A DNA stretch of 64,000 nucleotides, taken from positions 817,469-881,468 of the forward strand of contig JAHJQF010000001.1 of NCBI GenBank assembly GCA_018819405.1, written 5' to 3'. The stretch comes from Patescibacteria group bacterium (lineage in GTDB: Bacteria > Patescibacteriota > Patescibacteriia > UBA1558 > GWA2-36-10). Shown here piece by piece: positions 5,521 to 42,002 of the stretch (its first letter is position 1; every line of letters begins with the position of its first letter). A program made the translations under genes and the position numbers. The notes beneath the pieces are model-generated. The model was not told where the DNA came from and searched no databases. It worked only from the letters and a program-made list of their open reading frames with translations.

Positions 5521-6579
5521 TTACCAAAAAATAAATATTTTTATCAACTGCCAATAAATAAAAAATAAAACATTGGCCGTTTTAAGAGCCAGCGAATTGA
5601 GTGGCTGAAATAAAATCAATCCAGTAAACTTTGAAATTACTTGACGATCAGATCGAGTTCTTTTGGACTGTATATATTTTCTTTTGGTGGCTAGCATTTT
5701 CATATCACTGACTGAAAATAAAAATGAATACGCTTTTATTTTATCTTTTGTTCTTCTGTTTATCATGGCTAGCATCAATTGCCCAAATTCCATAATCAAC
5801 CAGGCTGGGAAAATAATTATCAAAGTGGCTATTTTATAATTTTTTAGCATTACCCAAAGACGATTTCTTTCAAAATAATAAAAATGCTTCATGCCTCTTT
5901 TGAATTCATACTTATGATAAATAACACTCTCTGGAATAAGATAATTATCATAACCCAACATAGACAAACTCCAACCCAAATCCAAATCCTCTAAATACAT
6001 AAACATAGTCTCATCAAACAAATATCCTAACTCTGCCAAAGCAGCCATAGACAAAAATTCACCAGCTCCGGAGGAATAATTTATTTTTTTTATTTTGTGA
6101 TCATTGCGATCAATTTTGCCGGATTCTGTACCATAACCAAATCCCAAAAAATGTATAGCATTACCCACCGTATTAATCCTATCCTTTTTGGACCATAATC
6201 TAAGTTTTGACTGCAGAGAACCAAATTTGTTTTGCTTGGCAAATTTATAAAGCGGCTCCAAAAAACCTGGACTGACTACAGTGTCCTGGTTCAAAAGATA
6301 TATATAATCCGCTCCTCTAGTCTTGGCCCAATCATAACCAATATTATTACCTCCGACAAAACCTGTATTTTCTTTATTAACAATAATATCAACACTGGGG
6401 AAATTATTTTTTATAAATTCTACTGAATCATCACTAGAATTATTATCTACCACCAAAATCTCCACATCAAAATCATGGTACTTTTCTTGTACCAAAGGTG
6501 GCATAAGGGCCGGTAGGTACTCACGACCATTATAAGAAACTATTATAACAACAACTTTATCACGCAGCATTTTTACCAT
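5521..6579 (-). CDS. Glycosyltransferase family 2 with C-terminal membrane segment
   Basis: 352 aa. The N-terminus has VVIIVSYNGREYL...VVDNNSSDDS and DXD-like motifs (GT-A fold). The C-terminus is hydrophobic. Confidence 0.75.
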   Translation of the reverse strand: MVKMLRDKVVVIIVSYNGREYLPALMPPLVQEKYHDFDVEILVVDNNSSDDSVEFIKNNFPSVDIIVNKENTGFVGGNNIGYDWAKTRGADYIYLLNQDTVVSPGFLEPLYKFAKQNKFGSLQSKLRLWSKKDRINTVGNAIHFLGFGYGTESGKIDRNDHKIKKINYSSGAGEFLSMAALAELGYLFDETMFMYLEDLDLGWSLSMLGYDNYLIPESVIYHKYEFKRGMKHFYYFERNRLWVMLKNYKIATLIIIFPAWLIMEFGQLMLAMINRRTKDKIKAYSFLFSVSDMKMLATKRKYIQSKRTRSDRQVISKFTGLILFQPLNSLALKTANVLFFIYWQLIKIFIFW

Positions 6580-6627: not shown

Positions 6628-6960
6628 TTATCTTTTTTCAGCATTTTTTATGGCGTCCTCTCTGACGGCTTTAGTAATTTCATTTTCAATTTTATTCAAT
6701 CGTACAAAAATTCTAAAGAGCATATAAAATATTACAACAATTGATATATAAACAACCAAATCTGCCCCTCTGCCTATACCCAAAACATTGGCCAAATAAG
6801 TAGTGGTATCAGGCTGCCAAAAAACGACTAATACTGCCAGCCAGAGCAAAAACCAAATAATAAAAGAAAAAAGTGATATTTTATTTTTTTGCTTTTGCAC
6901 AAAAAGCTTAAACAAAATAACCAAGACAAATAAAGTAATTATGATTTGTAAGTAAATCAT
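6628..6960 (-). CDS. Small membrane protein (DUF2304-like), typically paired with a GT2
   Basis: 110 aa with 3 TM helices. Overlaps the upstream GT2 by 4 nt (translational coupling). Confidence 0.5.
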   Translation of the reverse strand: MIYLQIIITLFVLVILFKLFVQKQKNKISLFSFIIWFLLWLAVLVVFWQPDTTTYLANVLGIGRGADLVVYISIVVIFYMLFRIFVRLNKIENEITKAVREDAIKNAEKR

Positions 6961-10300: not shown

Positions 10301-12319
10301 TTATCTGGCTAAAATATCAAAATTGTAACCGGTCTTGTCGTTTTCATTTCTGAGATAAACATTACTCTTTTCAGTACCGTCACTGTCATAAATACGAAGT
10401 AGTGCGGAGCTACCCCGACCAGGTAAGACCAATATCTCCGGCAGATTATCTCCCGAAATATCTTTGGCCAAAACTTTTACCCCACTAAACAAATATTTAC
10501 TAAAAGATAAAAATTCACTCTTTAAGGTGCCCCTCATACTAAAAAGTTTTATCTGGGGAGGATACAACCTAGCTGGTGCGGTGACAATTTCCGGCCAATG
10601 ATCTGCATTGACGTCACCAATAGAAATATTTACACCCGCTGTCATATCTTTGTCGTAGGCTAAAAAGCTAGCTTTTTGTCTATTTTCATAATTGAAAACT
10701 TTTATTTCAGGTATATAATTGCTAGCTGGTGCGGTGACAATCTCATCCTTTTCGTCGTTGTTGACATCGCCCAAAGCGACATTGACCCCACCGGCAAAAG
10801 CAGCATCATAAGCAAAAAATTCGTAAAGCAAATTACCTTGATAATCAAAAACTCTGATGTGTGGCCCGCCACCAGCCATAGGCGCAGTGACAATTTCTAG
10901 TGTTCCATTACCATCTACATCTCCGGTAGCAATATTTACTCCCCCTGTAAAGTTGGCATCATAAGCAAAAAATTCTGACTGAACATTACCATGAATATCA
11001 AAAACTCTGATATGTGGCCCGCCACCAGCCATAGGCGCAGTGACAATATTTTCCAGACCATCACCTGTTACATCTGATACCAGCACATTTACACCTCCTC
11101 GAAAACCAGCATTATAAGCTAAAAACCAACTTTCTAAATTGCCCTCAGTATCCATTATCAAGACTTCCGGCGGCAAACCTTTCAAAGGAGTAACTACAAT
11201 TTTTATAGAATCATTATAATAATGATCAGCCAGATTAAGAGCAGCCCCTACATCGACTAAGCCGGCGCCCAAATCTATATGATGAAGTGGATTGGATTCG
11301 CGTAAATCTTGAGCACTAGCTAGAATAATACTATATATATCATAAGGCCTCAGATCAGGATACTGACTTTTTATCAAAGCTGCTGTTGCCGAAATAATCG
11401 GAGCAGCGACTGAAGTTCCACTCCAGCCTCCCTGATAGTTATGATAAAAATTTCTGTCTGAAGAATTATAATAAGTCGTAGAATAAAAATCTGTACCCGG
11501 AGCTGAAATATCAATACACTGTTCACCATAATTGGTAAATTCGGTCATCTGCTTATTTTCATCTACTGCCGCGACACCTAAAACACGGTTAACATCATCT
11601 ATATCACAGACTGGATAACGAGGATCAATATCTAAGCTTATTCCAACACTTTCCTCGTTGCCAGAAGCCGCTACTATCATTACACCTTTATTGTAAGCAT
11701 TAATGATAGAAGTATTGAGTGGCTCGCCCAAAAACTCGCCAACCAAACTAAGATTGATTATATCTGCACCATTTTCTACGGCATAATCAATGGCCTGAGA
11801 CAAAACCAGAGTATTACCTACTCCTTTGGCATCCAAAATGCGAAGCGGCATAATCTTAGCATTTGGAGCAATACCTACTATACCGGTATTATTTATTCCG
11901 GCCGCAATAATTCCTGCCACCACGGTGCCATGATTTATAGCTGTGTAGTCATAATCTTTATCCAAAGTTGGCTCTGGATCGTTGTCAGAAGAAACAAAAT
12001 CCCAGCCATGGACATCATCAATAAAGCTATTATTGTCATTGTCTATCCCATCACCAGGTATCTCACCCGGATTTATCCAGATATTATTTTTCAAATCAGG
12101 GTGCTCCAAATAAACACCTGAATCAAGAATTGCTACTACTACTTCTTTGTTAGTTTTTAGCTCATTAGACCAAGATGGGCCTATATTTATATAGTTCAAA
12201 TATGATTGATAAACCAAGTTGGGGTCTGTTGGTGTATAATCTTGAGTAAAAGCTTGCACTGTGTTGGCCAAAAATAACAAAAATATGGCAAAAACAGCAA
12301 TTTTTTTATTTGTTTTCAC
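10301..12319 (-). CDS. Secreted S8 (subtilisin-like) serine peptidase with C-terminal FG-GAP/beta-propeller-like repeats
   Basis: 672 aa with a signal peptide and the catalytic triad blocks AILDSGV (Asp), HGTVVAGI (His) and GTSVAAP (Ser). It ends with four or more repeats of GDVxGDGxxEIVTAPMAGGGPHIRVFD. Confidence 0.8.
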   Translation of the reverse strand: MKTNKKIAVFAIFLLFLANTVQAFTQDYTPTDPNLVYQSYLNYINIGPSWSNELKTNKEVVVAILDSGVYLEHPDLKNNIWINPGEIPGDGIDNDNNSFIDDVHGWDFVSSDNDPEPTLDKDYDYTAINHGTVVAGIIAAGINNTGIVGIAPNAKIMPLRILDAKGVGNTLVLSQAIDYAVENGADIINLSLVGEFLGEPLNTSIINAYNKGVMIVAASGNEESVGISLDIDPRYPVCDIDDVNRVLGVAAVDENKQMTEFTNYGEQCIDISAPGTDFYSTTYYNSSDRNFYHNYQGGWSGTSVAAPIISATAALIKSQYPDLRPYDIYSIILASAQDLRESNPLHHIDLGAGLVDVGAALNLADHYYNDSIKIVVTPLKGLPPEVLIMDTEGNLESWFLAYNAGFRGGVNVLVSDVTGDGLENIVTAPMAGGGPHIRVFDIHGNVQSEFFAYDANFTGGVNIATGDVDGNGTLEIVTAPMAGGGPHIRVFDYQGNLLYEFFAYDAAFAGGVNVALGDVNNDEKDEIVTAPASNYIPEIKVFNYENRQKASFLAYDKDMTAGVNISIGDVNADHWPEIVTAPARLYPPQIKLFSMRGTLKSEFLSFSKYLFSGVKVLAKDISGDNLPEILVLPGRGSSALLRIYDSDGTEKSNVYLRNENDKTGYNFDILAR
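10570..11160 (-). repeat. Intragenic tandem DNA repeats (~150 bp units) encoding the FG-GAP-like blades of the subtilase
   Basis: Recurring ggcgcagtgacaat... and ccagccataggcgcagtgacaat segments at ~10582, 10735, 10875 and 11033. Confidence 0.6.
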
Positions 12320-15094: not shown

Positions 15095-16033
15095 TTAAAT
15101 AGCCATAAAGTATAAACCCAAAGCTATAAAAATAATGGCTAGCACTTTTTTGGACAGACGCCCATGACCATAATCTTCTTTTGCTATCTTAGGATAAAAA
15201 AATGTAAGCAGACCACTAAATAGCAACACCAAAGCATATTGTAAACCTTGTAGGGATGTCACCAGAGCTACAGAACCCAGAGCTACAGCATAATTTTGTA
15301 AAACAGAGCCCAACGCTCCCATACCCTGCGTACCTACATAAATAAATTTATTATTTTTTTGTTTATTTGATTTTTTTATTTCTGAAAATATTTCCTGCCG
15401 AGAAGATTGTTTTATAAGTAAAAATAAAACCGTCAAAAATGTACCGATTCTGACCCAGATAAATCCACTGACAAATTCTTGAGTATTATAAACTTGCTTG
15501 GTACCAACCCAAAAAAGAGCAAAAAATAAAGCGGCTATAATAGTAGAAAAAATACTCGGTAGTTGATATGGATCTAAAATATTTAAAAACTTTCTAATAT
15601 TAAACCAAATATTATGATGAACCGAAGTCCTAGAAATTATTATAGTACCTGATATCAAAAATAAAATAGCCAGCCATTGATAATTGCTGAATTTTTCTGC
15701 AAACAAAAGTAGAGAAAATAACACTGTAAAAACCGGTACCATACCGCCTACCAAAGTAAAAATCCGACTGGCTTCACCACCTTTGAGACCACGGTACAAA
15801 AAAAACAAACCACCGGCAAAAAAAGATCCCACCAAACAGTCAAAGAAAAACAAACCCCAGCCCGGCCAAGTCAAAAACCAAGGTGCTAGCAAGACCACTG
15901 CTACTCCGGTAGCGCCCACCAAAAATGTATAAGTCTTCGGACCAGGTATGACATTTTCCAAAATAAATTTATCAGCCACATTGACCAAACCCAGTACAAA
16001 ATAAGCTAAAATGGCAACTAGCAGCCAACTCAT
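15095..16033 (-). CDS. Polytopic membrane protein (about 10 TM), possible DMT/EamA-like or flippase-like protein
   Basis: 312 aa, highly hydrophobic. Overlaps the upstream gene start by 4 nt. Confidence 0.3.
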   Translation of the reverse strand: MSWLLVAILAYFVLGLVNVADKFILENVIPGPKTYTFLVGATGVAVVLLAPWFLTWPGWGLFFFDCLVGSFFAGGLFFLYRGLKGGEASRIFTLVGGMVPVFTVLFSLLLFAEKFSNYQWLAILFLISGTIIISRTSVHHNIWFNIRKFLNILDPYQLPSIFSTIIAALFFALFWVGTKQVYNTQEFVSGFIWVRIGTFLTVLFLLIKQSSRQEIFSEIKKSNKQKNNKFIYVGTQGMGALGSVLQNYAVALGSVALVTSLQGLQYALVLLFSGLLTFFYPKIAKEDYGHGRLSKKVLAIIFIALGLYFMAI

Positions 16034-17361
16034 ATATTATCTATTACTTCTTTTAAATTTCGCATCACTTTAGAATCATATTCCTGCCAACTGATAAAAC
16101 TAGCCGCTTTGAGAGCACTGAGAGATTTACTGTCTTCATTTTGGTATTTGCGTGGATAATTATTTTCCAAATCCCCATTATCCAATACATAAATATCATA
16201 CTGCTTAAGTGCTCGAATTAGTTCTGTATCATGTAAAGGCGCCAATTTTATATTCAGATCTCTCATCAAATCTCTAAGGTGCTGGGTTTTCATGACGTCA
16301 CGATCCAAAACTACCATAAAAGGTATTTTAAAAGTAGTCAAAATATCTATATAAATTTGCATATTACCCTTGCCGTCAGTCTGGATTACTTTGACATCTT
16401 TGCTGCCCTGATAAAACTTATCTATCAAACCTCTAAAAAGCAAGCGATCTGATACTCCTTCTACTAAAATTACCTTATCCGTAAAAAACATCTCTAGATT
16501 ATCGGCATTGAGCTCCTGGATAAGACGCTTATAATTGTAATGCCCCTCTATAGTAAAAGCTCTGGTATGATTATTATTATCTTTTTCTACTCTGACAAGT
16601 TGGGGTAAAGTGGCCGGAGTTATAAACAAGGGACTATGGGTAGAAAAAATTATCTGTCCAGCATTGGCATTTTGAATAGCCCAAAGTAATTTTTTTACCA
16701 TAGCCGGATGAAGGTGAGTCTCCGGCTCATTTATCATTACCACTGAATATTTTGGATGAAAAATATAAAGCAAGATTGTAAAAATCTGCCGGAAACCGGA
16801 ACCAAGTCTATCAATAGTGGCTTTTCTCTTGCCTTCAATAATACCCTCATTTTCATAACGAACATCCATGGCATTTTTGGTGGCTGATATTTTGGGAAAA
16901 TGATGTTTAAGATAAGACCGAAAATTTTCCAGATTACTGGGGAAATTAAAAAGTGAATGATAATCCAATTCTATTTGCTGGTAGTCATGAAAATTAACAT
17001 AGTCCAATCTCTTGACCTGTGAAGACAACAAAACAGACAAAGCTTTATTGTAAGTTATTTCTTTGTCAACAAATCTTAGATGTCGCTGACCGTTTTTTAA
17101 AATAAATCTAGCTGACTTTTCCGGAAATTGATTTTTGATTTGCTCATCGCTGTCAAACTCCAAATCAAGCTCTATATCAGCTTTGTCGTAAACAAGATTT
17201 TTATCCGTAAATGCCCCATCAAAAACAAACTCAATAGCATCTAAAATATTACTCTTACCACTATTATTTTGCCCAATAAAAATAGCCACCTGATTAAAAT
17301 CTAAAATCATCGGCTCTTTGATGCTTTTATAATAATTGATGGTTATTTTTTTTATAGTCAT
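16030..17361 (-). CDS. OLD-family ATP-dependent endonuclease (ABC-type ATPase + Toprim)
   Basis: 443 aa with Walker A GQNNSGKSN, Walker B VVMINEPETHLHP, and a C-terminal Toprim with VILVEGVSD (Glu) and VVLDRD (DxD). Confidence 0.7.
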   Translation of the reverse strand: MTIKKITINYYKSIKEPMILDFNQVAIFIGQNNSGKSNILDAIEFVFDGAFTDKNLVYDKADIELDLEFDSDEQIKNQFPEKSARFILKNGQRHLRFVDKEITYNKALSVLLSSQVKRLDYVNFHDYQQIELDYHSLFNFPSNLENFRSYLKHHFPKISATKNAMDVRYENEGIIEGKRKATIDRLGSGFRQIFTILLYIFHPKYSVVMINEPETHLHPAMVKKLLWAIQNANAGQIIFSTHSPLFITPATLPQLVRVEKDNNNHTRAFTIEGHYNYKRLIQELNADNLEMFFTDKVILVEGVSDRLLFRGLIDKFYQGSKDVKVIQTDGKGNMQIYIDILTTFKIPFMVVLDRDVMKTQHLRDLMRDLNIKLAPLHDTELIRALKQYDIYVLDNGDLENNYPRKYQNEDSKSLSALKAASFISWQEYDSKVMRNLKEVIDNI

Positions 17362-17362
17362 A

Positions 17363-18709
17363 CTACAAGAGGTGTACTTCGTCTATCTCACTTATTTTAT
17401 TACGTAATACTATATTTTCTATATGATAGGTGCCCATTTTAGGAGCATCTAAAAATCCTTCCATAGCCGCTTCAGCCAGCCAGCCAGAGTTGAGCCAGTC
17501 AAACAGCCATTCATCCACATAATTTGGATCCATGCTGTCTACACCCGCCCCGATAGCCAACAACCAACCTCGATTGTACCTTTCCTGATAGCCAATCGGC
17601 TCAGTCATAATAATAGGCAATCCCAAAGCACTATAAAAAGTAAGCTCTGACGGTTTGGTCCACAAAATATCTGTCTTTCTCAAGAGTTTATTAAATATTT
17701 TAAAATAATCCATTTTGTCCTCAGCATAAATCAATTGGACATTTTCACAATTCCCTAGACCACAACTTTTGACTACACTCTGATAGTAAATATAAACATC
17801 ATTTCTAACTCCGGCAATGAGGTTTAGCCTTATTTCTCCTGCTTTGAGGTATTTGTGTAGCCTTTTTAAAATAATTACTCCAATATCACGCTGAGCACCA
17901 GCTCCACCGACAGCAAAAGTAATACTCAATGGCCGTTTGGGATTTTTTATATTTTTGACAGGACCAAGATAATCTTCTATCAATTTGGCATATTTTTTTC
18001 TATAAATACCCCTAGGGTCAAGTTTAAATATTCTGGCGCTCAAATCACTACGAAGTATCTTTTGAGCGCTGCCACCGATATTTTCTTTTGGCAAGGGAAA
18101 ACCTGTCACATAAATTTTTTCTGGACGCACACCATAGAGTTTTAATCTTTGCTTCACTCGCTTATTTGGAACCAAATATTTAATCCTACTTTTACCCGGA
18201 TAAAAAGGTGCCCAAGCACGAGCCACATCAGCATCGCAAACTATCAAATATATATCTCCTTTGTAACCATGATGCTCCGCAAAGTAAGCTGGTACAAAAA
18301 AAGTAGTTAAAAATGGCAATGGCTTGTCATAATTTTTGGGAATACGCTGATTGAGCTCTTCCACCAAATGACGCCCCAGTCCACCTTTGACTTGATTGAA
18401 AAAATATTTTTGTTGCTGAGAATTTTTGGACAAATCCCTTTGTGGATAAAGCGGCTCTATTTTTTGAAAATTATCCATTATTTTAAAAGCCGTAGTGCCC
18501 AAAAATGGTACTTTTTTGAAACGAGATATTATTTCATACCATCTGCGTCCGCTGTTCCACTGTTTTTCCTCGCTTCTACTAATACCCTGATAATGATTGG
18601 CATTAGTAATACCACGATAAGCACTCTCCAAAAAAGGATAAGCCGCGCGCTGATGACCGTAGCCCATATCAACTGCCACTACGTGCATCAATTCTTTTTG
18701 TTTTGACAT
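17363..18709 (-). CDS. Putative GT-B fold glycosyltransferase (MurG/UgtP/MGDG-synthase-like)
   Basis: 448 aa. The N-terminus has VAVDMGYGHQRAA. The C-terminal half has FAVGGAGAQ and LGLPIIMTEPIGYQERYNRGWLLAIGAGV, resembling a GT28 C-domain. Confidence 0.4.
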   Translation of the reverse strand: MSKQKELMHVVAVDMGYGHQRAAYPFLESAYRGITNANHYQGISRSEEKQWNSGRRWYEIISRFKKVPFLGTTAFKIMDNFQKIEPLYPQRDLSKNSQQQKYFFNQVKGGLGRHLVEELNQRIPKNYDKPLPFLTTFFVPAYFAEHHGYKGDIYLIVCDADVARAWAPFYPGKSRIKYLVPNKRVKQRLKLYGVRPEKIYVTGFPLPKENIGGSAQKILRSDLSARIFKLDPRGIYRKKYAKLIEDYLGPVKNIKNPKRPLSITFAVGGAGAQRDIGVIILKRLHKYLKAGEIRLNLIAGVRNDVYIYYQSVVKSCGLGNCENVQLIYAEDKMDYFKIFNKLLRKTDILWTKPSELTFYSALGLPIIMTEPIGYQERYNRGWLLAIGAGVDSMDPNYVDEWLFDWLNSGWLAEAAMEGFLDAPKMGTYHIENIVLRNKISEIDEVHLL

Positions 18710-22626: not shown

Positions 22627-22830
22627 CTAAATATTTGCCGCATCCACAGATACCGCAGCGATTTTTGCTGCTTCCAGCTCCTCTTGTCTGAGTTTTTTGA
22701 GCCTCTCCAGGCAAGAAATTGGCGTGCAAAATTCCTGCCCGCAAAAATTACAACGCCATTTCCCTTTTGGCAGATTTCGATTGCCTTGGCAATCGTCCCC
22801 AGCTTCTGCTTCCTTGGACAAATCAGTCAT
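22627..22830 (-). CDS. GC-rich cassette B, gene 2: 67-aa Cys-rich mini-protein (zinc-ribbon-like)
   Basis: MTDLSKEAEAGDDCQGNRNLPKGKWRCNFCGQEFCTPISCLERL... The AAGGAGG directly abuts the ATG (suboptimal spacing), so the start is uncertain. Confidence 0.4.
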   Translation of the reverse strand: MTDLSKEAEAGDDCQGNRNLPKGKWRCNFCGQEFCTPISCLERLKKLRQEELEAAKIAAVSVDAANI

Positions 22831-22850
22831 CCTCCTTGATTGTTCTCCGA

Positions 22851-22931
22851 CTAACAGCCGAAGGTAGTGGGAAAGTAGCTGTCAAACAGCTCGTCGTCGC
22901 TGGCGTCATAGCCGAAAAAATTGTTGCTCAT
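22851..22931 (-). CDS. GC-rich cassette B, gene 1: 26-aa peptide MSNNFFGYDASDDELFDSYFPTTFGC
   Basis: RBS gaggag 8 nt before the ATG. First of three tandem small ORFs. Confidence 0.3.
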   Translation of the reverse strand: MSNNFFGYDASDDELFDSYFPTTFGC

Positions 22932-23217
22932 TGTCAGAACTCCTCTGTTTGATGGTTAGTGACTTGTGGTGGAATGTACACTTCTAAAACACCAAAAAAG
23001 CCGCCTTATTGGCGACCTGCATTTTTTGATGTTTAGAAGTTAAATAATTACTACTAGCAAAAAAGCAATCGCCTAAGGCGTCAACAAAATAATGCTAATA
23101 ATGATAATCAAACTTCTAAACATATATTTATATAAATAATAATATCACCACTAAAAAAGACTGTCAATATTTAGATGCGGCTGGTTTTCCTTTGGAAAAC
23201 CAGCCGCCAAAGCACTG

Positions 23218-23448
23218 CTAACCGCGCCAAAATCCCAGGGCAGGAGTATTGAGAATATTCTCGTTGGAAACCCCCAACACTGGATCTCCAGACTCAACAT
23301 CTAAGCTGGCCTGGCACTCGTGTTCTGCACAAGCATCAATAATGCTCCACCCTTTCTGGTAGCGAACCGTTGCCGGACGACTGACGCCCGATTGATCACA
23401 GATTGTACAGACTCCCTCTCCTGACCTAAGAGCCAGCCTCTTAGCCAT
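23218..23448 (-). CDS. GC-rich cassette C: 76-aa CxxC...CxxHxC mini-protein
   Basis: RBS cacggaggtgttgac then ATG. MAKRLALRSGEGVCTICDQ...DACAEHECQ, followed by hairpin gcggctggtttt...aaaaccagccgc. Confidence 0.45.
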   Translation of the reverse strand: MAKRLALRSGEGVCTICDQSGVSRPATVRYQKGWSIIDACAEHECQASLDVESGDPVLGVSNENILNTPALGFWRG

Positions 23449-23544
23449 GTCAACACCTCCGTGATTGTAATGATAGAGCTCATCTTGGAGCTCCCCCAGT
23501 TTTATCAGAGATTTCCTCCTATCCTAGTTTAGTAGTCAATAGTA

Positions 23545-23733
23545 TCAAAACCCATCCCCCTTTATCTGCCCGTTAGGCAAACTGGAATTGGAGACAATTT
23601 CCTGAGCAACTGTCGGCGCCTCTTTATCCGTATTTTCCAGATACAGACACTGATCATAGCGGCCACGCAGACAGTTTCGACAATAGCAGATTTCCATAAA
23701 TCCGCCGCTGGGATGTGGGATTTTCTGACGCAT
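23545..23733 (-). CDS. GC-rich cassette D: 62-aa Cys-containing mini-protein
   Basis: RBS aaaggagggtggtc then ATG. MRQKIPHPSGGFMEICYCRNCLRGRYDQCLY... A TTGACA lies upstream on the minus strand (-35 candidate). Confidence 0.45.
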   Translation of the reverse strand: MRQKIPHPSGGFMEICYCRNCLRGRYDQCLYLENTDKEAPTVAQEIVSNSSLPNGQIKGDGF

Positions 23734-23982
23734 GACCACCCTCCTTTGTGCACTAAGTGCGGTTGAATGCTTATGTCAATGAACTCTATCAAAAAAGGCC
23801 GCTGTTAGGCGACCTTTATTTTGTATAATTTATAAATTTTGAAATATATGATTACACAAAACTAGGTCGTCTGAGCGTCCAAAATAAATGAAATGCGAAT
23901 ATAGGTGTGATTTAGTTTTGTGAAATTTATTATCATATTGAATTTAGCTTATCATAGCTTAAAATATCTTGTCAAATGTTTT

Positions 23983-24996
23983 TTAATTTTTAACATCAAA
24001 ATCCAAGAAAAAACCATAATGAGCTCTTTTTCTAAATTGAGGGCTCCTCAAATTCAACTTTTCTATAATACCTTTAGGGGACAAATCATAACCTTCTATT
24101 TCTATGGACTTGCCGTCAACTAAAGCTGTGGCCATGACTGGTTGTGGGTGTCCGATGGCATAAGCTAATTTTACCAAGACCTCTTTGGCATTATATTTTT
24201 TGAGATACTCTACTGCCAAATAACGAGCCATATAAGCGGCGGATCTATCTACTTTGGTGGAATCTTTACCTGAAAAACAACCTCCACCAACTGGGATTTG
24301 AGGGCCATAGTTGTCAGCGGTTATTTTCCTACCGGTCAAGCCAGTATCAGCTTCAAAACCTCCTTGGACAAAAGGGCCAGCCGGATTGATAAATATATTT
24401 TTGTATTCTGGGATTATAGGTTTTACTACTTCTTCTTCTATTAATTGTTTTAGTTTTTCAAAATCAACATCAGCCTTGTGTTGAGTGGAAACTACTACTG
24501 TATCCACTACTTGATTGTCATTTAAAGTGACCTGAGCTTTAGCATCAGGCATAAGATATTGAGATAATTCTGTTTTAGCTTCATTGCGAATTTCTTCTAG
24601 TTTTCTGACTAGTTTTGTGGCTAAAACATGTTCTATAGGCAACATTTCAGGAGTTTCACTGGTAGCATAGCCGACCATAATACCCTGATCACCTGCTCCA
24701 CCGGTATCAACACCACGAGCAATATCTGGACTTTGTTTTACTATATTTACCAATATCTCTAATTCTTCTTTATAACCTATATCTTTATATACATCTCTGG
24801 CAATTTGAGCGGCATCAAATTTGGCAGTTGTAGTCACTTCTCCCATTATGACTAATTTTCCATGACCACCTAAAGCCTCCACTGCTACCCGACTAGTAGG
24901 ATCTTGACGCAAACATTCATCTAAAATAGCGTCCGATATTTGATCACATACTTTATCAGGATGTCCATAAGTAATTTGTTCTGCAGTTTTCAACAT
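23983..24996 (-). CDS. metK: S-adenosylmethionine synthetase (short form)
   Basis: 337 aa with GHPDKVCDQISDAILD, GGGCFSGKD and GDQGIMVGYA motifs. Confidence 0.9.
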   Translation of the reverse strand: MLKTAEQITYGHPDKVCDQISDAILDECLRQDPTSRVAVEALGGHGKLVIMGEVTTTAKFDAAQIARDVYKDIGYKEELEILVNIVKQSPDIARGVDTGGAGDQGIMVGYATSETPEMLPIEHVLATKLVRKLEEIRNEAKTELSQYLMPDAKAQVTLNDNQVVDTVVVSTQHKADVDFEKLKQLIEEEVVKPIIPEYKNIFINPAGPFVQGGFEADTGLTGRKITADNYGPQIPVGGGCFSGKDSTKVDRSAAYMARYLAVEYLKKYNAKEVLVKLAYAIGHPQPVMATALVDGKSIEIEGYDLSPKGIIEKLNLRSPQFRKRAHYGFFLDFDVKN

Positions 24997-25020: not shown

Positions 25021-25155
25021 AAAAAACTCTCTTTTTATTATAGAGAGTAGATTCGTCATCTTTCCCTCCAAATAGGGTTGGACTTAGCACCTTTCTAAAA
25101 GTAGGTTGCTGACGGATCATAGAGCCAAATCTCTCCCCGTTCTCTTGATAATTTA
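25021..25155 (-). promoter_or_regulatory. SAM-I (S-box) riboswitch with intrinsic terminator, in the metK leader
   Basis: The minus strand reads TTATCAAGAG..GGGAGAGA..GGCTCTATGA..GTCAGCAACC..AAGGTGCTAAGTCC..GGAGGGAAAG, then hairpin actctct-ataataaaa-agagagt plus TTTTT. This matches the S-box consensus blocks. Confidence 0.7.
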
Positions 25156-28289: not shown

Positions 28290-30891
28290 TTTTTATTTGC
28301 TCTTTCAAATAATAACCCGTCACTGATTTTTGATTATTAGCTACTTCCTCAGGTGTACCAGAGGCCACTAATTTTCCACCTTCATCGCCACCCTCTGGAC
28401 CCAAATCCAACAAATAATCCATAGATTTTAACATATGAAGATTATGTTCAATTACTACTACGGTATTTTGTCTGACCACCAACTTATTTAGCACCTGAAG
28501 TAACATCTCCACATCATGATAATGTAAACCCACCGTTGGCTCATCCAGAAGATATAGACTGCGTTTACCTAAAGTATGAGTCAGCTCACGAGCTAATTTG
28601 ATACGCTGAGCCTCACCGCCAGAAAGAGTAGTGGCACTTTGTCCTAGCTGTAGATAACCCAAACCCACCTCTTGCAAAACTTTGAGTTTGTCGGCGATAC
28701 GATAGTTAGCATCAAAATAATCTATAGCTTCATCAATTGTCAGGGCTAGCACTTCGGCAATATTTTTACCTTTGTATTTTACCTGCAAAGTCTCACGGTT
28801 GAATCTTTTACCACGACAGACATCACACTCTACATAAACTGCCGGCAGAAAATGCATTTCTATCAATTTGGCACCCGCTCCGTCACAGGCCTCACACCGT
28901 CCACCCGGACGATTAAAAGAAAATCTGGAAAGTGAATATCCCCTTTCTCTAGCTTCTGGCAGCAGGGCAAAAAAATCTCTAATTGGTGTAAAAATTCCAG
29001 TATAAGTTGCTGGATTAGACCGCGGCGTCCTGCCAATTGGTGATTGATCTATCACTATGACTTTACTGATATATTCACTACCCTCTATCCTAGTTACATC
29101 TTGGAGCTTAAATTTGCCAGGACGATTTTTGATAGCACTGAGATTTTTGTAAAGCACATCATAAAGTAAGCTTGATTTGCCAGAACCAGACACACCACTA
29201 ATGCCCACTAGTTTACGCAAAGGTATCTCTACTTGCAAATTTTTTAGATTATTGGCTCTAGCACCTATCAATTTTAGACTCTCGGTACTTTTTTCCCGAC
29301 GCTTATCAGGAATGTGAATTCGCCTCTTGCCGACCAAATAGTCAACGGTTAATGATTTTTTACTATTGGCCACATTTATAATCTTATTAGTCTCACCAGC
29401 TATCATGACTTCACCGCCGTGTATTCCGGCCATCGGTCCAAGATCCACAAGATAATCTGATGACATGATAGTCTGTTCATCGTGCTCTACTATTATTACT
29501 GAGTTGTTTTTGCTTTGCAAAGATCTTAGAGTTTCAATCAATCTAGAAGTGTCTCTTTCATGAAGGCCGATAGTTGGCTCATCAAGAACATACAAAGTGC
29601 GGGATAAATGTGATCCGATCTGGGATGACAGTCTGATACGCTGTGCCTCGCCGCCAGATAATGTATGAGCTCGTCTGTCTAAAGTAAGATAATTTAAACC
29701 AACTTTGAGTAAAAATTCCAAACGACTAATAATCTCAACCACTACCGGCTCAGCAATAACCCGATGATTATCCGGCATATTAGTAAAATAATCTTCAAAA
29801 AATTTGTGCGCCTTATCAATTGACCAAGCACTAATCTCGGCAATATTAACCTTGTTTATTCTGATTGATAAAGTCTCGGGTCTAAGCCTCAGACCATGAC
29901 AATCACCGCAAGTATCTTCATCTTCCCAAGATACCATACCTAGGCCATGACAAGTTGGACAAGCACCGTGTGGACTGTTGAAAGAAAAGAGTCTTGGCTC
30001 TATTTCCGGAAAAGAAAAATTGTCTTTGGGACAAGTCCAATTGGCTGATAAAAGCATTTCTTCGGATTTTTTCTTTTGACTGTCAAACAGGATTGTAATT
30101 ACTCCTTGACCATAGTCCAAAGCACTTTCTACTGCCTCATAAAGACGGGTACGATCACTGAGCATTATTTTATCTACTACAATATCAATATCATGTTTTT
30201 TGTACCTAGCCAGATTTATTTTGTCGTGCAAATTATGAAGTTTGCCATCTACTCTAGCCTGAGAATAACCCAAAGACAAGTAATCATACAAAAGTTGGTA
30301 ATATTCTCCTTTTCTGCCACGAACTACTGGAGCTAGGATGGTAATATACTTATCACCTCGGTCTTTAGCTTTTTTACTTATTATGTCTATCATCTCATCC
30401 ACCGACAGTTTTTCTATCTTGGTCTTACAAATTGGACAATATACCTCACCCAACCTAGCAAATAAGACACGCAAATAATCATATATTTCAGTCAATGTAC
30501 CGACTGTAGAGCGCGGATTGTGACTCAATGATTTTTGATCTATAGAAATAGATGGAGCTAGACCAATTATCTCATCAACCTCGGCCGGCTTCATCTGTCC
30601 CAAAAATTGCCGAGCATAAGGGGAAAGAGATTCAATATATCTGCGTTGCCCCTCGGCAAAGATAGTATCAAAAGCCAAAGATGACTTACCACTGCCTGAC
30701 ACACCAGTAATAACAACCAGCTTATTGTGCGGTATAGTTAAATTTATATTTTTCAAATTGTGCATGCGCGCACCTTTGATTATTATATTTTCATCCATAT
30801 TATTTTCTTTGTTTATTCTCAATATCCAAAAATCTGGAAATTTCTTTTTTAATTGTCTTTGGCTTGATGCCGTGCTTTCTATTGTAGGCAA
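28264..30891 (-). CDS. uvrA: Excinuclease ABC subunit A
   Basis: 875 aa with two ABC ATPase modules (GVSGSGKSSL twice), zinc-finger Cys clusters and signature LSGGEAQRI twice. Overlaps the uvrC start by 26 nt. Confidence 0.95.
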   Translation of the reverse strand: MPTIESTASSQRQLKKKFPDFWILRINKENNMDENIIIKGARMHNLKNINLTIPHNKLVVITGVSGSGKSSLAFDTIFAEGQRRYIESLSPYARQFLGQMKPAEVDEIIGLAPSISIDQKSLSHNPRSTVGTLTEIYDYLRVLFARLGEVYCPICKTKIEKLSVDEMIDIISKKAKDRGDKYITILAPVVRGRKGEYYQLLYDYLSLGYSQARVDGKLHNLHDKINLARYKKHDIDIVVDKIMLSDRTRLYEAVESALDYGQGVITILFDSQKKKSEEMLLSANWTCPKDNFSFPEIEPRLFSFNSPHGACPTCHGLGMVSWEDEDTCGDCHGLRLRPETLSIRINKVNIAEISAWSIDKAHKFFEDYFTNMPDNHRVIAEPVVVEIISRLEFLLKVGLNYLTLDRRAHTLSGGEAQRIRLSSQIGSHLSRTLYVLDEPTIGLHERDTSRLIETLRSLQSKNNSVIIVEHDEQTIMSSDYLVDLGPMAGIHGGEVMIAGETNKIINVANSKKSLTVDYLVGKRRIHIPDKRREKSTESLKLIGARANNLKNLQVEIPLRKLVGISGVSGSGKSSLLYDVLYKNLSAIKNRPGKFKLQDVTRIEGSEYISKVIVIDQSPIGRTPRSNPATYTGIFTPIRDFFALLPEARERGYSLSRFSFNRPGGRCEACDGAGAKLIEMHFLPAVYVECDVCRGKRFNRETLQVKYKGKNIAEVLALTIDEAIDYFDANYRIADKLKVLQEVGLGYLQLGQSATTLSGGEAQRIKLARELTHTLGKRSLYLLDEPTVGLHYHDVEMLLQVLNKLVVRQNTVVVIEHNLHMLKSMDYLLDLGPEGGDEGGKLVASGTPEEVANNQKSVTGYYLKEQIKNDKVKRKN

Positions 30892-32635
30892 TTTGTTTTT
30901 CCCGTCTTCTCTCCACTTCAGCCATAGCCCTTTTTATAGAACCAGTTTTTTTATCAGCGTACAAAATGACCTTGCCATTTACATTTCTGGCTGCTCTACC
31001 CATAATTTGCATCAAAGATGTCTCACTCCTCAAAAATCCTTCACGATCAGCATCAAGAATGGCCACCAAGCTAACCTCCGGCAAATCTAATCCTTCTCTT
31101 AGCAAATTAACGCCAACTAATACATCAAATTTTCCGCTCCTAAAATCCATCAAAATATCGGCTCTTTCTACGGTTTTTATATCAGAATGAAGAAAATTTG
31201 ACTTAATTTTCTTAGATTTTAAATAACTGTGTAAATCTTCGGCCTGCTTCTTGGTCAAAGTATTTACTATTGTCCTGTCATGGCTTTTTACCAATATTCC
31301 TATCTCGGATACTATATCATCTATCTGGGTGCGATTTTTCTTTTTATCAAAAATTGGTCGCACTTCTACTGGTGGATCAATCAAGCCAGTGGGTCGGATA
31401 AGCTGCTGGACAATCTGTTTGGAGTGTTCTATTTCCCAATTACCGGGAGTAGCCGAAGTAAAAATAACCTGCCCCACTCTATCCAAAAATTCTTCAAAAC
31501 GGAGTGGTCTATTATCCAAAGCTGACGGCAAACGCCAGCCATATTGAGATAATATTTCCTTACGACTTTTATCCCCCATATACATACCCCTGATTTGTGG
31601 CAAAGCAATGTGTGATTCATCAATAATTGTCAAAAAATCTTTTTTATCAAAATAAGCCAAAAGTGTATCCGGTGCTTGCCCAAGCAACTTACCAGTCAGA
31701 TGCCTAGAATAATTTTCTATACCATGACAGTAGCCCAAAGATTTCATCATCTCCATATCAAAACGTGTACGACGCTCTAGTCTTTCAGCTTCTAGATAAA
31801 GCTTCTTTTTATTAAAATATTTTAAACGTTCTTGGAGCTCATCTTTTATCTCTTTGATAGCCTGTTCAATCTCGGGCTGAGAAGAAACAAAATGTTTAGG
31901 CGGAAAAACTACTATCTCTTTTAGGCTACTAGATATTTTTCTGCTCAATTTTTCCAACAAATCTATTGAACTAATTTTTTGTTCAATAAATTCTATACGA
32001 TAGACAGTCTCCTCAGAGGCCGGCATTATCTCAAATACATCACCTCGTACTCTAAATTTACCTCGACCAAGTTCTCCGGGTGTGCGTTCAAATTGCATTT
32101 TGATAAGTTGCCTAATAAGATCACCACGGACAATAGGCTGACCAACCGCCAGACGCAAAGCGTGCTCCAAATAATTTAGTGGTATTCCCAAATTATAAAT
32201 ACAAGAAACCGAAGCCACTATAATCACATCTTTTCTAGTCAGAAGCGCACTAGTAGCCTGATGGCGCAATCTATCAATCTCATCATTTATCATTGCCTCT
32301 TTTTCAATGTAAGTGTCAGTAATCGGCATATAAGCTTCCGGCTGATAATAATCATAATAAGAAACAAAATAATTCACTGAATTTTCAGGGAAAAACATTT
32401 TGTATTCATGATAAAGCTGAGCGGCCAGTGCTTTGTTGGGAGCAATCACCAAAACAGGCCGATTGAATTTTTGAATTACATTGGCCATGGTAAAAGTCTT
32501 ACCAGATCCAGTCACTCCCAAAAGTGTCTGAAAGTCGTGACCTCTTTCTAAGCCACCGGCCAACTTGGTTATAGCTTGTGGTTGATCACCAGCCGGTTCA
32601 AATTTTGACTTTATTTTAAATATTTTATCCTTCAT
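30800..32635 (-). CDS. uvrB: Excinuclease ABC subunit B (start placed at the internal ATG, MKDKIFKIK...)
   Basis: Helicase motifs GVTGSGKTF and DESH, a beta-hairpin region and a C-terminal UVR domain. The track ORF starts 21 codons upstream in AT-rich sequence. Confidence 0.9.
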   Translation of the reverse strand: MKDKIFKIKSKFEPAGDQPQAITKLAGGLERGHDFQTLLGVTGSGKTFTMANVIQKFNRPVLVIAPNKALAAQLYHEYKMFFPENSVNYFVSYYDYYQPEAYMPITDTYIEKEAMINDEIDRLRHQATSALLTRKDVIIVASVSCIYNLGIPLNYLEHALRLAVGQPIVRGDLIRQLIKMQFERTPGELGRGKFRVRGDVFEIMPASEETVYRIEFIEQKISSIDLLEKLSRKISSSLKEIVVFPPKHFVSSQPEIEQAIKEIKDELQERLKYFNKKKLYLEAERLERRTRFDMEMMKSLGYCHGIENYSRHLTGKLLGQAPDTLLAYFDKKDFLTIIDESHIALPQIRGMYMGDKSRKEILSQYGWRLPSALDNRPLRFEEFLDRVGQVIFTSATPGNWEIEHSKQIVQQLIRPTGLIDPPVEVRPIFDKKKNRTQIDDIVSEIGILVKSHDRTIVNTLTKKQAEDLHSYLKSKKIKSNFLHSDIKTVERADILMDFRSGKFDVLVGVNLLREGLDLPEVSLVAILDADREGFLRSETSLMQIMGRAARNVNGKVILYADKKTGSIKRAMAEVERRREKQIAYNRKHGIKPKTIKKEISRFLDIENKQRK

Positions 32636-32743
32636 AAATTTATATAAATAGCACAAAGGCCCCAAGTTTTTTTGGGGTGAGTATATATAATAATACAAGA
32701 CACAAAAATATGCAAAATATAAATAATTAGTTTCCCAATGCTA

Positions 32744-32772
32744 TTGACAAAAAACTAAATATATGTTAATAT
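32744..32772 (+). promoter_or_regulatory. Consensus sigma70 promoter (TTGACA-17-TAATAT) driving the ncRNA candidate
   Basis: ttgacaaaaaactaaatatatgttaatat. Confidence 0.6.
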
Positions 32773-32778
32773 AGCAAG

Positions 32779-33030
32779 GTTCAACTAATAATAACTTTTC
32801 TTTCAATTCGCAGGAGAAAAATTTAGGTGATAGATTGCCGCGCGGCTCTCGCTAGCGCTGTCCAATTCTTAAGTGCTCAAACACTGCGGGATTGTTGACA
32901 CCTCGCGCAGCAAATCAGGTCACCTGGGATAGCTATTTGAACTAGCACATCGCCTGTTCAAGTCCCCGCTCCTGCTTGGAGCCCGATACTACACAATGGA
33001 ACAAAACGTGTGGGTCGGGCTCTTTTTTTT
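32779..33030 (+). ncRNA. Unclassified GC-rich structured small RNA candidate (~250 nt), stand-alone between uvrB and rlmN
   Basis: Promoter upstream, then a GC-rich noncoding stretch with multiple palindromes (cgctagcg, agtgctcaaacact, ccgcgcgg...cgcgcag). Ends in a strong terminator gagcccga...tcgggctc plus T8. No ORF with an RBS. Confidence 0.5.
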
Positions 33031-33060
33031 GTCAAAAGAAAAACCCTTTTTGTGTTGGAA

Positions 33061-34053
33061 TTATTTTTTATCAGTAGCCAGCTGTCCACAAGCTGCCTCT
33101 ATATCTCTACCAAAACTATAACGCTGAGTAACTGATATTCCTTCTCTTTCCAAAAGATGACGAAATTTTTGTATGTCTTTGACGTCACTGGCTTTGAAGA
33201 CATCTGTCGGATTATAAGAAATAAGATTGACCATATACAAAGGTTTTTTCATTAACCGAGCCAATTCTTCAGCATGTTTTGGCTGATCATTTACTCCTTT
33301 GATCATCAAATATTCAAACATAACCCGACGACCGGTTTTGGCAATATATTCGTCAACCTCTTTTAGTAGTTTAGTAATATTAAAACCACGATTTATAGGC
33401 ATGAGTTCACTTCTCAATTTGTCATTTGGTGCATGAAGCGACACTGCCAAATTGACTTGAAAATTTTCACTAGCTAATTTTTTGATACCATGAATTACAC
33501 CACTGGTAGAAATAGAAATGCGTCTGGCTCCAATGTGCAAATCTTCATTAAGATACTTGATAGCCTTGATCACATTTTCATAATTTAAAAATGGCTCCCC
33601 CATCCCCATAAATACCACATTGGAAACACGATCATTACTTTTGGCCAAATATCTGCTAAAAAATAAAACCTGCTCTATGATTTCATTATAATCAAGATTT
33701 CTTTTTAAACCCATTTTACCGGTAGCACAAAAAGTACAGCCCAAAGGACAGCCAACTTGAGTAGACACACAGACTGTAAAGCGCCCGTCTTTGTGCCCCA
33801 AAAGTACAGTCTCTATTTTCAAACCATCAGACAAAGTAATCAAAGCTTTGGTAGATTGAGTGTTTTTGGAAGCAAAAATTTGCCCATCAATTTCTAAAGG
33901 ACAAACTTCATTTAATTTTTCCTTCAAATCCTTGGGTATATTACTAGCCTCAGACCAATTGGTGACCATTTTCTCAAAAATAGCCTCTTTGGCCTGTTTT
34001 ACCCTATATTTAGGCTGTTCTGCCAAGACTTCATATAAATTTTCTAAATTCAT
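33061..34053 (-). CDS. rlmN: 23S rRNA (adenine2503-C2)-methyltransferase, radical SAM
   Basis: 330 aa with the CPLGCTFCATG radical-SAM Cys motif and the MGMGEP block. Confidence 0.85.
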   Translation of the reverse strand: MNLENLYEVLAEQPKYRVKQAKEAIFEKMVTNWSEASNIPKDLKEKLNEVCPLEIDGQIFASKNTQSTKALITLSDGLKIETVLLGHKDGRFTVCVSTQVGCPLGCTFCATGKMGLKRNLDYNEIIEQVLFFSRYLAKSNDRVSNVVFMGMGEPFLNYENVIKAIKYLNEDLHIGARRISISTSGVIHGIKKLASENFQVNLAVSLHAPNDKLRSELMPINRGFNITKLLKEVDEYIAKTGRRVMFEYLMIKGVNDQPKHAEELARLMKKPLYMVNLISYNPTDVFKASDVKDIQKFRHLLEREGISVTQRYSFGRDIEAACGQLATDKK

Positions 34054-35860: not shown

Positions 35861-36014
35861 ATATATCTAAATTATAACCTGCTATATAAAATATTGTCAA
35901 AAATCTCATATATTGACAAAAAATCTAAAAAATTATACTATATATTGTTTTCCAAGCGCAAGAAAGCTATATGCTAACTTGCTAAATTGTTCACACAAGC
36001 CTGGAGGAAAGTAC

Positions 36015-37337: not shown

Positions 37338-37350
37338 TTTGGTCTTTTGA

Positions 37351-37473
37351 GGGGGAGTAGTATAGTGGTAGTCCACCCAGCCGCTCGCGAGCAGCTGGGA
37401 CAGGGGTCTCCACCCAGCCCTTCGCGAAGGGCTGGGTCCACCACAGCCACCATTGTTGGCTGGGTCCAAAACC
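37351..37473 (+). pseudogene. 5' portion of a split tRNA-like gene (acceptor + D-arm + CCA-type anticodon-stem region) interrupted by three GC-rich hairpin elements
   Basis: gggggagtagtatagtggtag, then hairpins tccacccagccgctcgcgagcagctggg, acccagcccttcgcgaagggctgggtcc and accacagccaccattgttggctgggtcc between ggtctcc and aaaacc. No T-arm. Its acceptor is complementary to the 3' piece at 37933-37939. Confidence 0.45.
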
Positions 37474-37515
37474 TAAAAAAGCATAATTAAAACAAGAAAA
37501 GCGATTATTTATTAT

Positions 37516-37752
37516 GTGTATATTTTAAAATTAAATAGCGGCAGATTTTATATAGGTTATACGAAAAATATAAAAAGAAGATTATCTGAACACAAAAGAA
37601 AAAAATCTTACATAACTGGCCGAGAAAAATGTTTTGAATTAATCTACTTTGAAGCTTATAATGAGATATACCCAGCTCAAGAAAGAGAGAAAAAACTCAA
37701 ACAATACGGATCAGCTTATCATGGATTATTAAAAAGGTTAAAAATTCGCTAA
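37516..37752 (+). CDS. GIY-YIG nuclease-family small protein (78 aa), second copy in the window
   Basis: MYILKLNSGRFYIGYTKNIKRRLSEHK...E..K. Sits between the two halves of the split tRNA-like gene. Confidence 0.7.
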   Translation: MYILKLNSGRFYIGYTKNIKRRLSEHKRKKSYITGREKCFELIYFEAYNEIYPAQEREKKLKQYGSAYHGLLKRLKIR

Positions 37753-37760
37753 CAGTTGGA

Positions 37761-37836
37761 GGGGGTGTAGTGTCAATGGCTAGCACGTCGGTCTCCAAAA
37801 CCGTAAGTCTGGGTTCGAATCCTAGCACCCCTGCCA
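37761..37836 (+). tRNA. tRNA-Trp (anticodon CCA), intact
   Basis: gggggtgtagtgtcaatggctagcacgtcggtctccaaaaccgtaagtctgggttcgaatcctagcacccctgcca. U8 and T-loop ttcgaat are present, with a G-U closing pair in the acceptor. Confidence 0.85.
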
Positions 37837-37866: not shown

Positions 37867-37943
37867 CTGGTCTCCACCCAGCCGCTCGCGAGAGGCTGGG
37901 TCCAAAACCTCTAGCGTGGGTTCGATTCCTACCTCCCCTGCCA
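37867..37943 (+). pseudogene. 3' portion of the split tRNA-like gene (anticodon-loop region with one inserted hairpin, T-arm, acceptor 3' strand, CCA)
   Basis: ctggtctcc[acccagccgctcgcgagaggctgggtcc]aaaacctctagcgtgggttcgattcctacctcccctgcca. Removing the bracketed 28 nt gives ggtctccaaaacc, identical to the tRNA-Trp anticodon loop. Confidence 0.45.
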
Positions 37944-38022
37944 GCTTAAGATCATCTTTTGAGATGGTTTTTTTGTTTGCAAAAGAAAAGGAGACTCACG
38001 AATTTTGAATTCATAAATCTCC

Positions 38023-41647: not shown

Positions 41648-41651
41648 ATGC

Positions 41652-41855
41652 CTATTTGGCATGATTTGTCTCCAAAGCCTTGACCAAAAGATCTTTGTAG
41701 TCGGCATCAAAAAAGCCGACGATGGTCACCTGACCCTGGATTGTGTTGTCCACTTCGCGTTTGAGACGCGCTCCTAAGTCACCGTTGATGGGTCCCAAAC
41801 TACTGAAAACGAAATCTCCGGACATGGTCTTGACGACTTTTTGCCAGTTGGACAT
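41652..41855 (-). CDS. GC-rich cassette H: hypothetical 67-aa protein
   Basis: RBS cataaaggagcaggtc then ATG. MSNWQKVVKTMSGDFVFSSLGPINGDLGARLKREVDNTIQGQVTIVGFFDADYKDLLVKALETNHAK. TTGACA lies upstream on the minus strand. Confidence 0.45.
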   Translation of the reverse strand: MSNWQKVVKTMSGDFVFSSLGPINGDLGARLKREVDNTIQGQVTIVGFFDADYKDLLVKALETNHAK

Positions 41856-42002
41856 GACCTGCTCCTTTATGAAAAGTGTACACCAGCAACCTCTAACTAG
41901 TCAGGATACTATGTAATAGCTTCATTGTCAATATAAATATAGATATTTGCAAATTCCAAAAAAGTGCTATAATAATATTATTAACAAACCTAAACTAAGA
42001 AA

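Follow-up and report, generated by a model that had tools for sequence, protein, structure and literature searches.

The window analyzed here is a 64,000-nt stretch of DNA from a Patescibacteria/Parcubacteria MAG, on a metagenome-assembled contig of 1.04 Mb (ENA ERZ27247117; Logan SRR6514730). In its uvrB-rlmN intergenic region, at 32744-33030 on the plus strand, lies a probable small RNA (sRNA) gene with a body of about 250 nt. The rlmN stop codon is 30 nt from the T tract at the end of this gene, and the source record of the window's RlmN carries the label Patescibacteria/Parcubacteria. A preliminary description of this DNA had reported a GC-rich transcript, free of ORFs and followed by no protein gene on its strand. 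All three statements hold: the GC fraction is 0.48 to 0.54 over 32800-32999, against 0.21 to 0.32 in the flanks and 0.37 in the whole window; the sense-strand ORFs have at most 23 codons, none of them kept in the homologues; and the next plus-strand gene is found only at 35913. The window has other GC-rich sequence. On the minus strand, 22745-23982 is a 1.2-kb segment whose GC fraction rises to 0.57 and in which an ORF scan gave none of at least 90 amino acids; it looks like a group of small genes that have Shine-Dalgarno sequences and hairpin terminators, one of them for a CxxC protein of about 77 amino acids that ends near 23217. A small GC-rich ORF with a Shine-Dalgarno sequence also occurs at 41650-41860, on the minus strand of an AT-rich intergenic region.

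The gene begins with a sigma-70-type promoter (Table 1) whose boxes are separated by a 17-nt spacer ending in TG(T). It had been called a perfect TTGACA-17-TAATAT promoter, which is accurate for the -35 box; the -10 box shares only 4 of 6 positions with TATAAT, though it has the extended TG. A single match of this quality is at chance level, given that the surrounding 3 kb held 12 promoter-like sites where 10.0 ± 2.8 were expected. The promoter is significant because CTATTGACAAA-N-ATATGnTAnnnT is kept at equal distance in all four homologues (the window and the three relatives described below), and not by virtue of the lone match. All four sRNA loci have in common TTGACA-17-TAnnnT with TG.

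At the 3' end, the terminal hairpin of the preliminary description (gagcccga...tcgggctc plus T8) is present as GGAGCCCGAU...GUCGGGCUCU followed directly by eight T residues. This hairpin, P4, together with the T8 tract is the predicted intrinsic terminator of the sRNA. It was overlooked by the terminator scanner because its loop exceeds the scanner's limit of 8 nt. P4 with a U run was found in three of the four homologues: the U run comes straight after P4 in L003 and is weaker in L083, while a further terminator hairpin is present in L111. The ends of the transcript, including the start of transcription, are positions that we infer from these signals.

Table 1. Positions of the sRNA gene parts, of the genes on either side, and of the genes that occupy the slot downstream of rlmN in relatives
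Feature	Position	Strand	Description and basis
uvrB	30800..32635	-	Pfam UvrB_inter, Helicase_C, UvrB; divergent from sRNA gene
sigma-70-type promoter	32744..32772	+	-35 box TTGACA 32744-32749, -10 box TAATAT 32767-32772; 10/12 consensus positions matched (consensus scan), TG extension; shared, with identical placement, by L083, L111, and L003
5' leader	32779..32809	+	AU-/pyrimidine-rich, about 31 nt, predicted unpaired (MFE structure)
P1, 5' strand	32810..32816	+	GCAGGAG, includes invariant AGGAG; predicted to pair with 32969-32975 (MFE structure)
J12	32817..32824	+	linker AAAAAUUU (MFE structure, homologue folds)
Arm A	32825..32925	+	predicted long irregular hairpin of about 100 nt, closed by P2 (MFE structure)
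P2	32825-32831 with 32919-32925	+	AGGUGAU with GUCACCU (MFE structure, compensatory changes)
Arm B	32926..32966	+	predicted hairpin closed by P3 (GGGAU with GUCCC); inner stems UUGAAC/GUUCAA and GC/GC (MFE structure)
P1, 3' strand	32969..32975	+	CUCCUGC, includes invariant CUCCU; preceded by junction nucleotides CG (MFE structure, alignment)
P4	32978..33023	+	hairpin GGAGCCCGAU-A-CUACAC-loop-GUGUGG-GUCGGGCUCU (MFE structure, descriptor)
T8 tract	33023..33030	+	read in the sequence
rlmN	33061..34053	-	Pfam Radical_SAM, RlmN_N; named RlmN in source records; convergent with sRNA gene
Slot genes of relatives	L083:4994-5401, 6095-6330; L111:2140-2425; L087:6366-6743; L003:3195-3640	against flanking genes	each with a consensus promoter

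Lack of conservation in relatives had been named in the preliminary description as one result that would refute the RNA call, and the sRNA, with its promoter and its fold, is kept in three of them. In the closest relative, L083 (ENA ERZ23510489; RlmN 85% identical), the homologue is 73% identical over 314 nt (E = 1e-34); it is flanked by genes for a cupredoxin and an ABC transporter, at a distance of 1.4 kb from rlmN. The L111 homologue (Logan SRR22388165; RlmN 78%) is located between rlmN and uvrB, and that of L003 (GenBank JAUYFP010000084.1; RlmN 77%) is immediately downstream of rlmN. These last two are 60% identical to each other and only 41 to 47% identical to the window/L083 pair, and the sole method that recovered them was a structure descriptor, which asked for AGGAG ... 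CUCCU and then a GC-rich hairpin.

Wider searches indicated a narrow distribution. In 80 GTDB species loci around rlmN, nhmmer and blastn gave no sRNA match, and addition of the descriptor and a covariance model found the sRNA in L003 only. A four-sequence nhmmer profile, the descriptor, and covariance model R1 yielded no further homologue; over the window and 71 loci (573 kb), R1 scored its training sequences at 181 to 218 bits and the next best sequence at 13 bits. The sRNA was not found near rlmN in four comparably distant relatives (L086, L087, L089, and L112), and it is thus either dispensable or relocating. Matches in L087 and L089 proved to be a GC-rich gene for a 125-amino-acid protein and not the sRNA. 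A JGI metagenome scan with GGCTCTCGCTAG-N25-55-TTGACACC, a pattern whose blocks are specific to the window/L083 pair, returned 14 matches, all due to chance and on contigs of 51 to 72% GC. Three patterns run against IMG/VR gave 0, 1, and 59 matches, again all due to chance, and no sRNA match turned up when phage and plasmid collections were searched by blastn. No second copy of the sRNA was found within the window, and a reading of it as a DGR template or repeat was rejected for that reason; what looked like another match, at 23241-23436, is a minus-strand gene for a small protein and is GC-rich itself.

The plus strand of the window sRNA folds with a minimum free energy (MFE) of -88.1 kcal/mol (z = -5.2), a value equaled by none of 200 shuffles, and the antisense strand gave z = -2.85. 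The L083 and L111 homologues also fold better than shuffles (z = -4.0 and -4.2, respectively); L003 by itself does not (z = -1.6). The architecture predicted in common for the four homologues is a leader, a three-way junction in which P1 encloses two arms, A with P2 as its closing helix and B with P3, and the 3' hairpin P4. The leaders are 31 to 38 nt long in all four, and the leader sequence UUUCUUUC is common only to the window and L083. J12 varies in length, from 8 nt in the window and 18 nt in L083 to about 4 to 5 nt, UAGU(C), in L111 and L003. Arm B directly abuts arm A, one or two junction nucleotides precede the 3' strand of P1, and P4 starts 1 to 3 nt after P1.

In this fold, the GGG/CCC base of P3, GGG(A) with (U)CCC, is conserved, and the outer stem of P4, G[A/G]GCCCG / CGGGC[U/C]C, is nearly invariant, while its inner stem is variable. 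Inside both arms, the stems differ wholly in sequence from one homologue to another, and hairpins are formed all the same. For arm B, they are UUGAAC/GUUCAA in the window, CUAGCAG/CUGCUAG in L083, GCAC/GUGC in L111, and GGCGU/ACGCC in L003. In arm A, blocks GCCGCGCGGCUCUCGCUAG and UUGACACCUCGCGC are identical between the window and L083, and the interior in L111 and L003 is another hairpin sequence, which covaries between these two (CUUCC-GGC/GCCGGAAG versus GUUUUGG/CCAAAAC). A pseudoknot of 4 to 5 bp between the leader and the P4 loop can be drawn in each (UUCA/UGGA in the window, UCCG/CGGA in L083, UUCCA/UGGAA in L111, and GUUA/UAAU in L003) and is too prone to chance to be claimed.

Covariation, which the preliminary description had proposed as a check, was examined in an alignment of the four sequences from which the arm A interior was spliced out so that the helices were in register. 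Over 27 consensus pairs, 88.8% of the cells were paired, compared with 42 to 56% in controls whose 3' partners were slid by 1 to 3 columns, and five pairs (seven cells) had changed on both sides. Compensatory changes fell in P1 (GC to AU and CG to UA in L003; GC to GU in L111), in P2 (UA to GC and AU to GC), and in P4 (AU to GC in L111 and L003), and the G-U pairs of these three helices are consistent with the plus strand only. The covariation score was 0.228, against 0.144 ± 0.031 in shuffles, and was reached by 5 of 500 of them; the number of pairs changed on both sides was reached by 61 of 500. With RNAalifold, a full-length alignment of the four had a compensatory change in 9 of 27 pairs. 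These statistics are modest because there are only four distinct sequences, which form two close pairs.

We then compared the surroundings of the sRNA gene. Its upstream neighbor is a divergent uvrB in the window and in L111 and a divergent ABC-transporter gene in L083; in L003, the sRNA is positioned behind another GC-rich ORF. On the downstream side is a convergent rlmN in the window and L003. In L083 and L111, it is a gene on the same strand for a single-transmembrane protein of 48 to 49 amino acids, which has its own TTGACA-17-TATAAT promoter 3' of the sRNA terminator. That small gene is absent from the entire 64-kb window and from the vicinity of the sRNA in L003. Equivalent sites can also be empty: rlmN and uvrB are 78 bp apart in L089, and in L106 the cupredoxin and ABC genes are separated by 150 bp, the empty site that relatives showed when the ABC-transporter neighbor of L083 was used as a search anchor. 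Thus, the sRNA gene is tied to no particular neighbor, and its genomic position is variable. The contents of the slot downstream of rlmN differ by relative and comprise 48- to 55-amino-acid membrane proteins, a 125-amino-acid acidic protein, a cupredoxin, and the sRNA. The slot genes are small and GC-rich, and those for the 48- to 55-amino-acid membrane proteins have near-identical terminators. The sRNA is one item of the variable cargo in this small hot spot.

The window has two further features. A CCCCAA...UUGGGG hairpin lies between the uvrB promoter region and the start codon (32660-32677, minus strand) and is kept in four genomes, namely, the window, L111 (~2905-2925), L089 (~11040-11060), and L087 (~6860-6880); it could be a uvrB leader element or an rlmN terminator. 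At 16030-18709 on the minus strand, an OLD-family ATPase/TOPRIM protein (AAA_15/AAA_21 plus OLD-like_TOPRIM) is encoded beside a DUF6938 protein, a pair that looks like an anti-phage defense system. Separately, a guide-RNA-like reading of the sRNA was considered, and no RNA-guided nuclease was identified by Pfam among the 14 window proteins scanned.

We consider it likely that 32744-33030 is a genuine gene for a noncoding, structured sRNA of about 250 nt, predicted to be transcribed independently, and that it represents an undescribed family restricted so far to a narrow Patescibacteria/Parcubacteria clade. Of the two candidates put forward in the preliminary description, a 6S RNA and a novel structured RNA, the second agrees with the lack of an Rfam match, the three homologues, the conserved promoter, the shared fold, and the compensatory changes. 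The gene resembles stand-alone trans-acting sRNAs, with their sigma-70 promoters and Rho-independent terminators, in being an intergenic unit of about 250 nt that ends in a GC-rich hairpin and a U run, in having no conserved ORF, and in its variable neighbors and narrow phylogenetic range. The sRNA would be a new family within a well-known kind, the stand-alone structured sRNAs of bacteria.

As to function, the most likely reading, which we hold tentatively and from the pattern of conservation only, is that the sRNA would be a stable, trans-acting scaffold. Its conserved junction and the P1 and P4 helices would be recognized by a protein or a small ligand, and the RNA might serve to sequester its partner or as a sensor. 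We arrive at this reading because the invariant nucleotides are in the junction and in P1 and P4, while the leader and the loops, where seed sites would be, vary.

For that reason, the scaffold reading is ranked over a trans-acting antisense sRNA, in which the leader or a loop would pair with purine-rich ribosome-binding sites and the junction and terminator hairpin would give stability only. The antisense reading is possible, if somewhat doubtful. It fits a gene that stands alone between a strong promoter and an intrinsic terminator, and it fits a leader that is predicted to be unpaired; this leader includes UUUCUUUC in the window/L083 pair and either UUCC or UUCUCU in the L111/L003 pair. However, the leader sequence is not kept across the four homologues, as P1, P4, and the junction are. 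Compared with typical seed-pairing sRNAs, the present RNA is far more structured, having a three-way junction and some 27 or more pairs that are conserved, and the positions it conserves belong to the helices and the junction, not to a single-stranded seed.

An orphan riboswitch or cis-acting leader is an unlikely explanation. Here the junction would be an aptamer and P4 with its U run an expression platform; the gene once under its control would be the one for the small membrane protein, since lost from the window. A terminator hairpin 1 to 3 nt past a three-way junction, as in the sRNA, is an arrangement typical of riboswitches. As in three-way-junction aptamers and riboswitch-derived trans RNAs, P1 closes a two-arm junction with the terminator hairpin right after it, and the junction-proximal nucleotides are conserved while the outer arm sequences vary. 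In L083 and L111, moreover, the transmembrane-protein gene follows the sRNA on the same strand. That gene, however, has its own consensus promoter past the sRNA terminator at both loci, with a second terminator in between in L111, and the window and L003 have no downstream gene at all. No convincing conserved antiterminator was found, the sole option being a 4-bp CUCC/GGAG pairing that is lost in L003, and no Rfam 15 riboswitch model matched. The key trait of a cis regulator, a consistent downstream gene, was not seen in the four loci.

The same neighbor invites comparison with type I antitoxins, in which case the adjoining small hydrophobic protein would be the toxin, and this we regard as very improbable. 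The adjacency of the sRNA to a gene for a small single-transmembrane protein does recall such systems, yet it occurs in two of four loci only. Both genes are read from one strand, in tandem, which leaves no antisense overlap, and their complementarity is no better than chance: the best predicted RNA-mRNA duplex is -34.6 for L083, compared with -33.2 ± 3.7 for shuffled sequences, and -30.4 for L111, compared with -34.1 ± 3.2.

It is scarcely credible that the sRNA is a diverged housekeeping RNA (6S, SRP, RNase P, or tmRNA) overlooked by the Rfam models in Patescibacteria. RNAs of Patescibacteria are frequently atypical, the sequence of 6S RNA is poorly conserved, and the gene has a strong promoter. 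Against this, the Rfam scan that had been suggested at the outset, run at the gathering threshold and at an E value of ≤10, found no family for the sRNA. At the gathering threshold, Rfam 15 reported only two tRNAs and one SAM riboswitch in the window. At an E value of ≤10, the 501 nt of 32600-33100 gave noise only, with a best score of 18.7 bits against a threshold of 50; that match, to the "toxic sRNA" model, was rejected because it covers the terminator alone. Permissive scans of the L111 and L084 loci likewise returned nothing on the sRNA. Universal RNAs would not be expected to diverge to 41 to 47% identity inside one narrow clade, nor to be missing, as the sRNA is, from the rlmN slots of L086, L087, L089, and L112 and, by model search, from the rest of the 573 kb.

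Individual families were rejected as follows. 6S RNA (RF00013), the other candidate of the preliminary description, had no model match at either threshold. It is like the sRNA in its size class, in fast sequence change with kept structure, and in having 5' and 3' parts that are paired in a closing helix; given its strong promoter, the sRNA is probably abundant too. However, the 6S fold is a rod with a large central bubble and one apical stem, whereas the sRNA has a closing helix (P1) of just 7 to 9 bp, a two-arm junction in which the variable J12 of 4 to 18 nt is the only single-stranded strand, and a separate 3' hairpin. The earlier exclusion by eye of SRP RNA, tmRNA, and RNase P RNA was borne out by model searches. 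SRP RNA (RF00169/RF01854) had no match at an E value of ≤10, and a motif like SRP domain IV/helix 8 is absent from the blocks conserved in the four sRNAs. For tmRNA (RF00023), both ARAGORN, run on the window, and Rfam were negative. RNase P RNA (RF00010/RF00011) had no model match, and an RNase P-like AAGUCC...GCUCC in the window is not kept in L083, L111, or L003.

Among other RNA elements of the window, the SAM riboswitch is of type SAM-I (25053-25154, minus strand; 66.7 bits) and is upstream of a 337-amino-acid ORF at 23983-24996. On the plus strand, 37349-37474 and 37869-37945 contain tRNA-like pieces that neither ARAGORN nor Rfam called. After the 5' piece, GGGGGAGTAGTATAGTGGTAGTCC, come three hairpins that are GC-rich and of the form CCCAGCC-N8-GGCTGGG, and a fourth hairpin of this form runs into ...GGGTCCAAAACC...GGGTTCGATTCC...CTCCCCTGCCA, which comprises a T arm, an acceptor strand that would pair with the 5' piece, and CCA. 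Between the pieces are a small GIY-YIG-like ORF and a normal tRNA-Trp (37515-37752 and 37761-37836). The two pieces may belong to one tRNA gene that an insertion has divided.

As far-fetched as a diverged housekeeping RNA is a small protein gene, for which AGGAG would be a Shine-Dalgarno sequence and GTG 32827 the start of a 23-codon ORF: the GTG does lie 9 nt downstream of AGGAG in the window, but the ORF is not conserved (L083 uses another frame for the shared block, and no start codon is suitably placed in L111 or L003), indels of 1 to 2 nt break the frame within conserved blocks, and AGGAG is predicted to be base paired in P1 in all four sequences. On the opposite strand, the antisense ORFs of L083, L111, and L003 are broken in the window.

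Returning to the scaffold reading, its most far-reaching form is that the sRNA would be the first known example of a class of sensor or scaffold RNAs that act in trans and are specific to Patescibacteria, carried as cargo of the hot spot downstream of rlmN, with an aptamer-like core that binds a protein or ligand. This core would consist of the invariant AGGAG:CUCCU, the junction nucleotides CCU|GGGA and CCCC(A/G), and the GCCCG:CGGGC hairpin. In that full form, the proposal is speculative and rather unlikely.

A literature search found no relevant report of such an sRNA, and a published screen of GC-rich intergenic regions does not mention these phyla. The significance of the sRNA is limited because its distribution is narrow, with four organisms so far. 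To our knowledge, the Patescibacteria (CPR) have minimal genomes and few recognizable regulators, and almost no regulatory RNAs have been described in them. The case of this sRNA shows that present RNA family libraries undercover the Patescibacteria, and a conserved, strongly promoted, and highly structured sRNA with no Rfam family is a concrete handle on RNA-based regulation in these bacteria.
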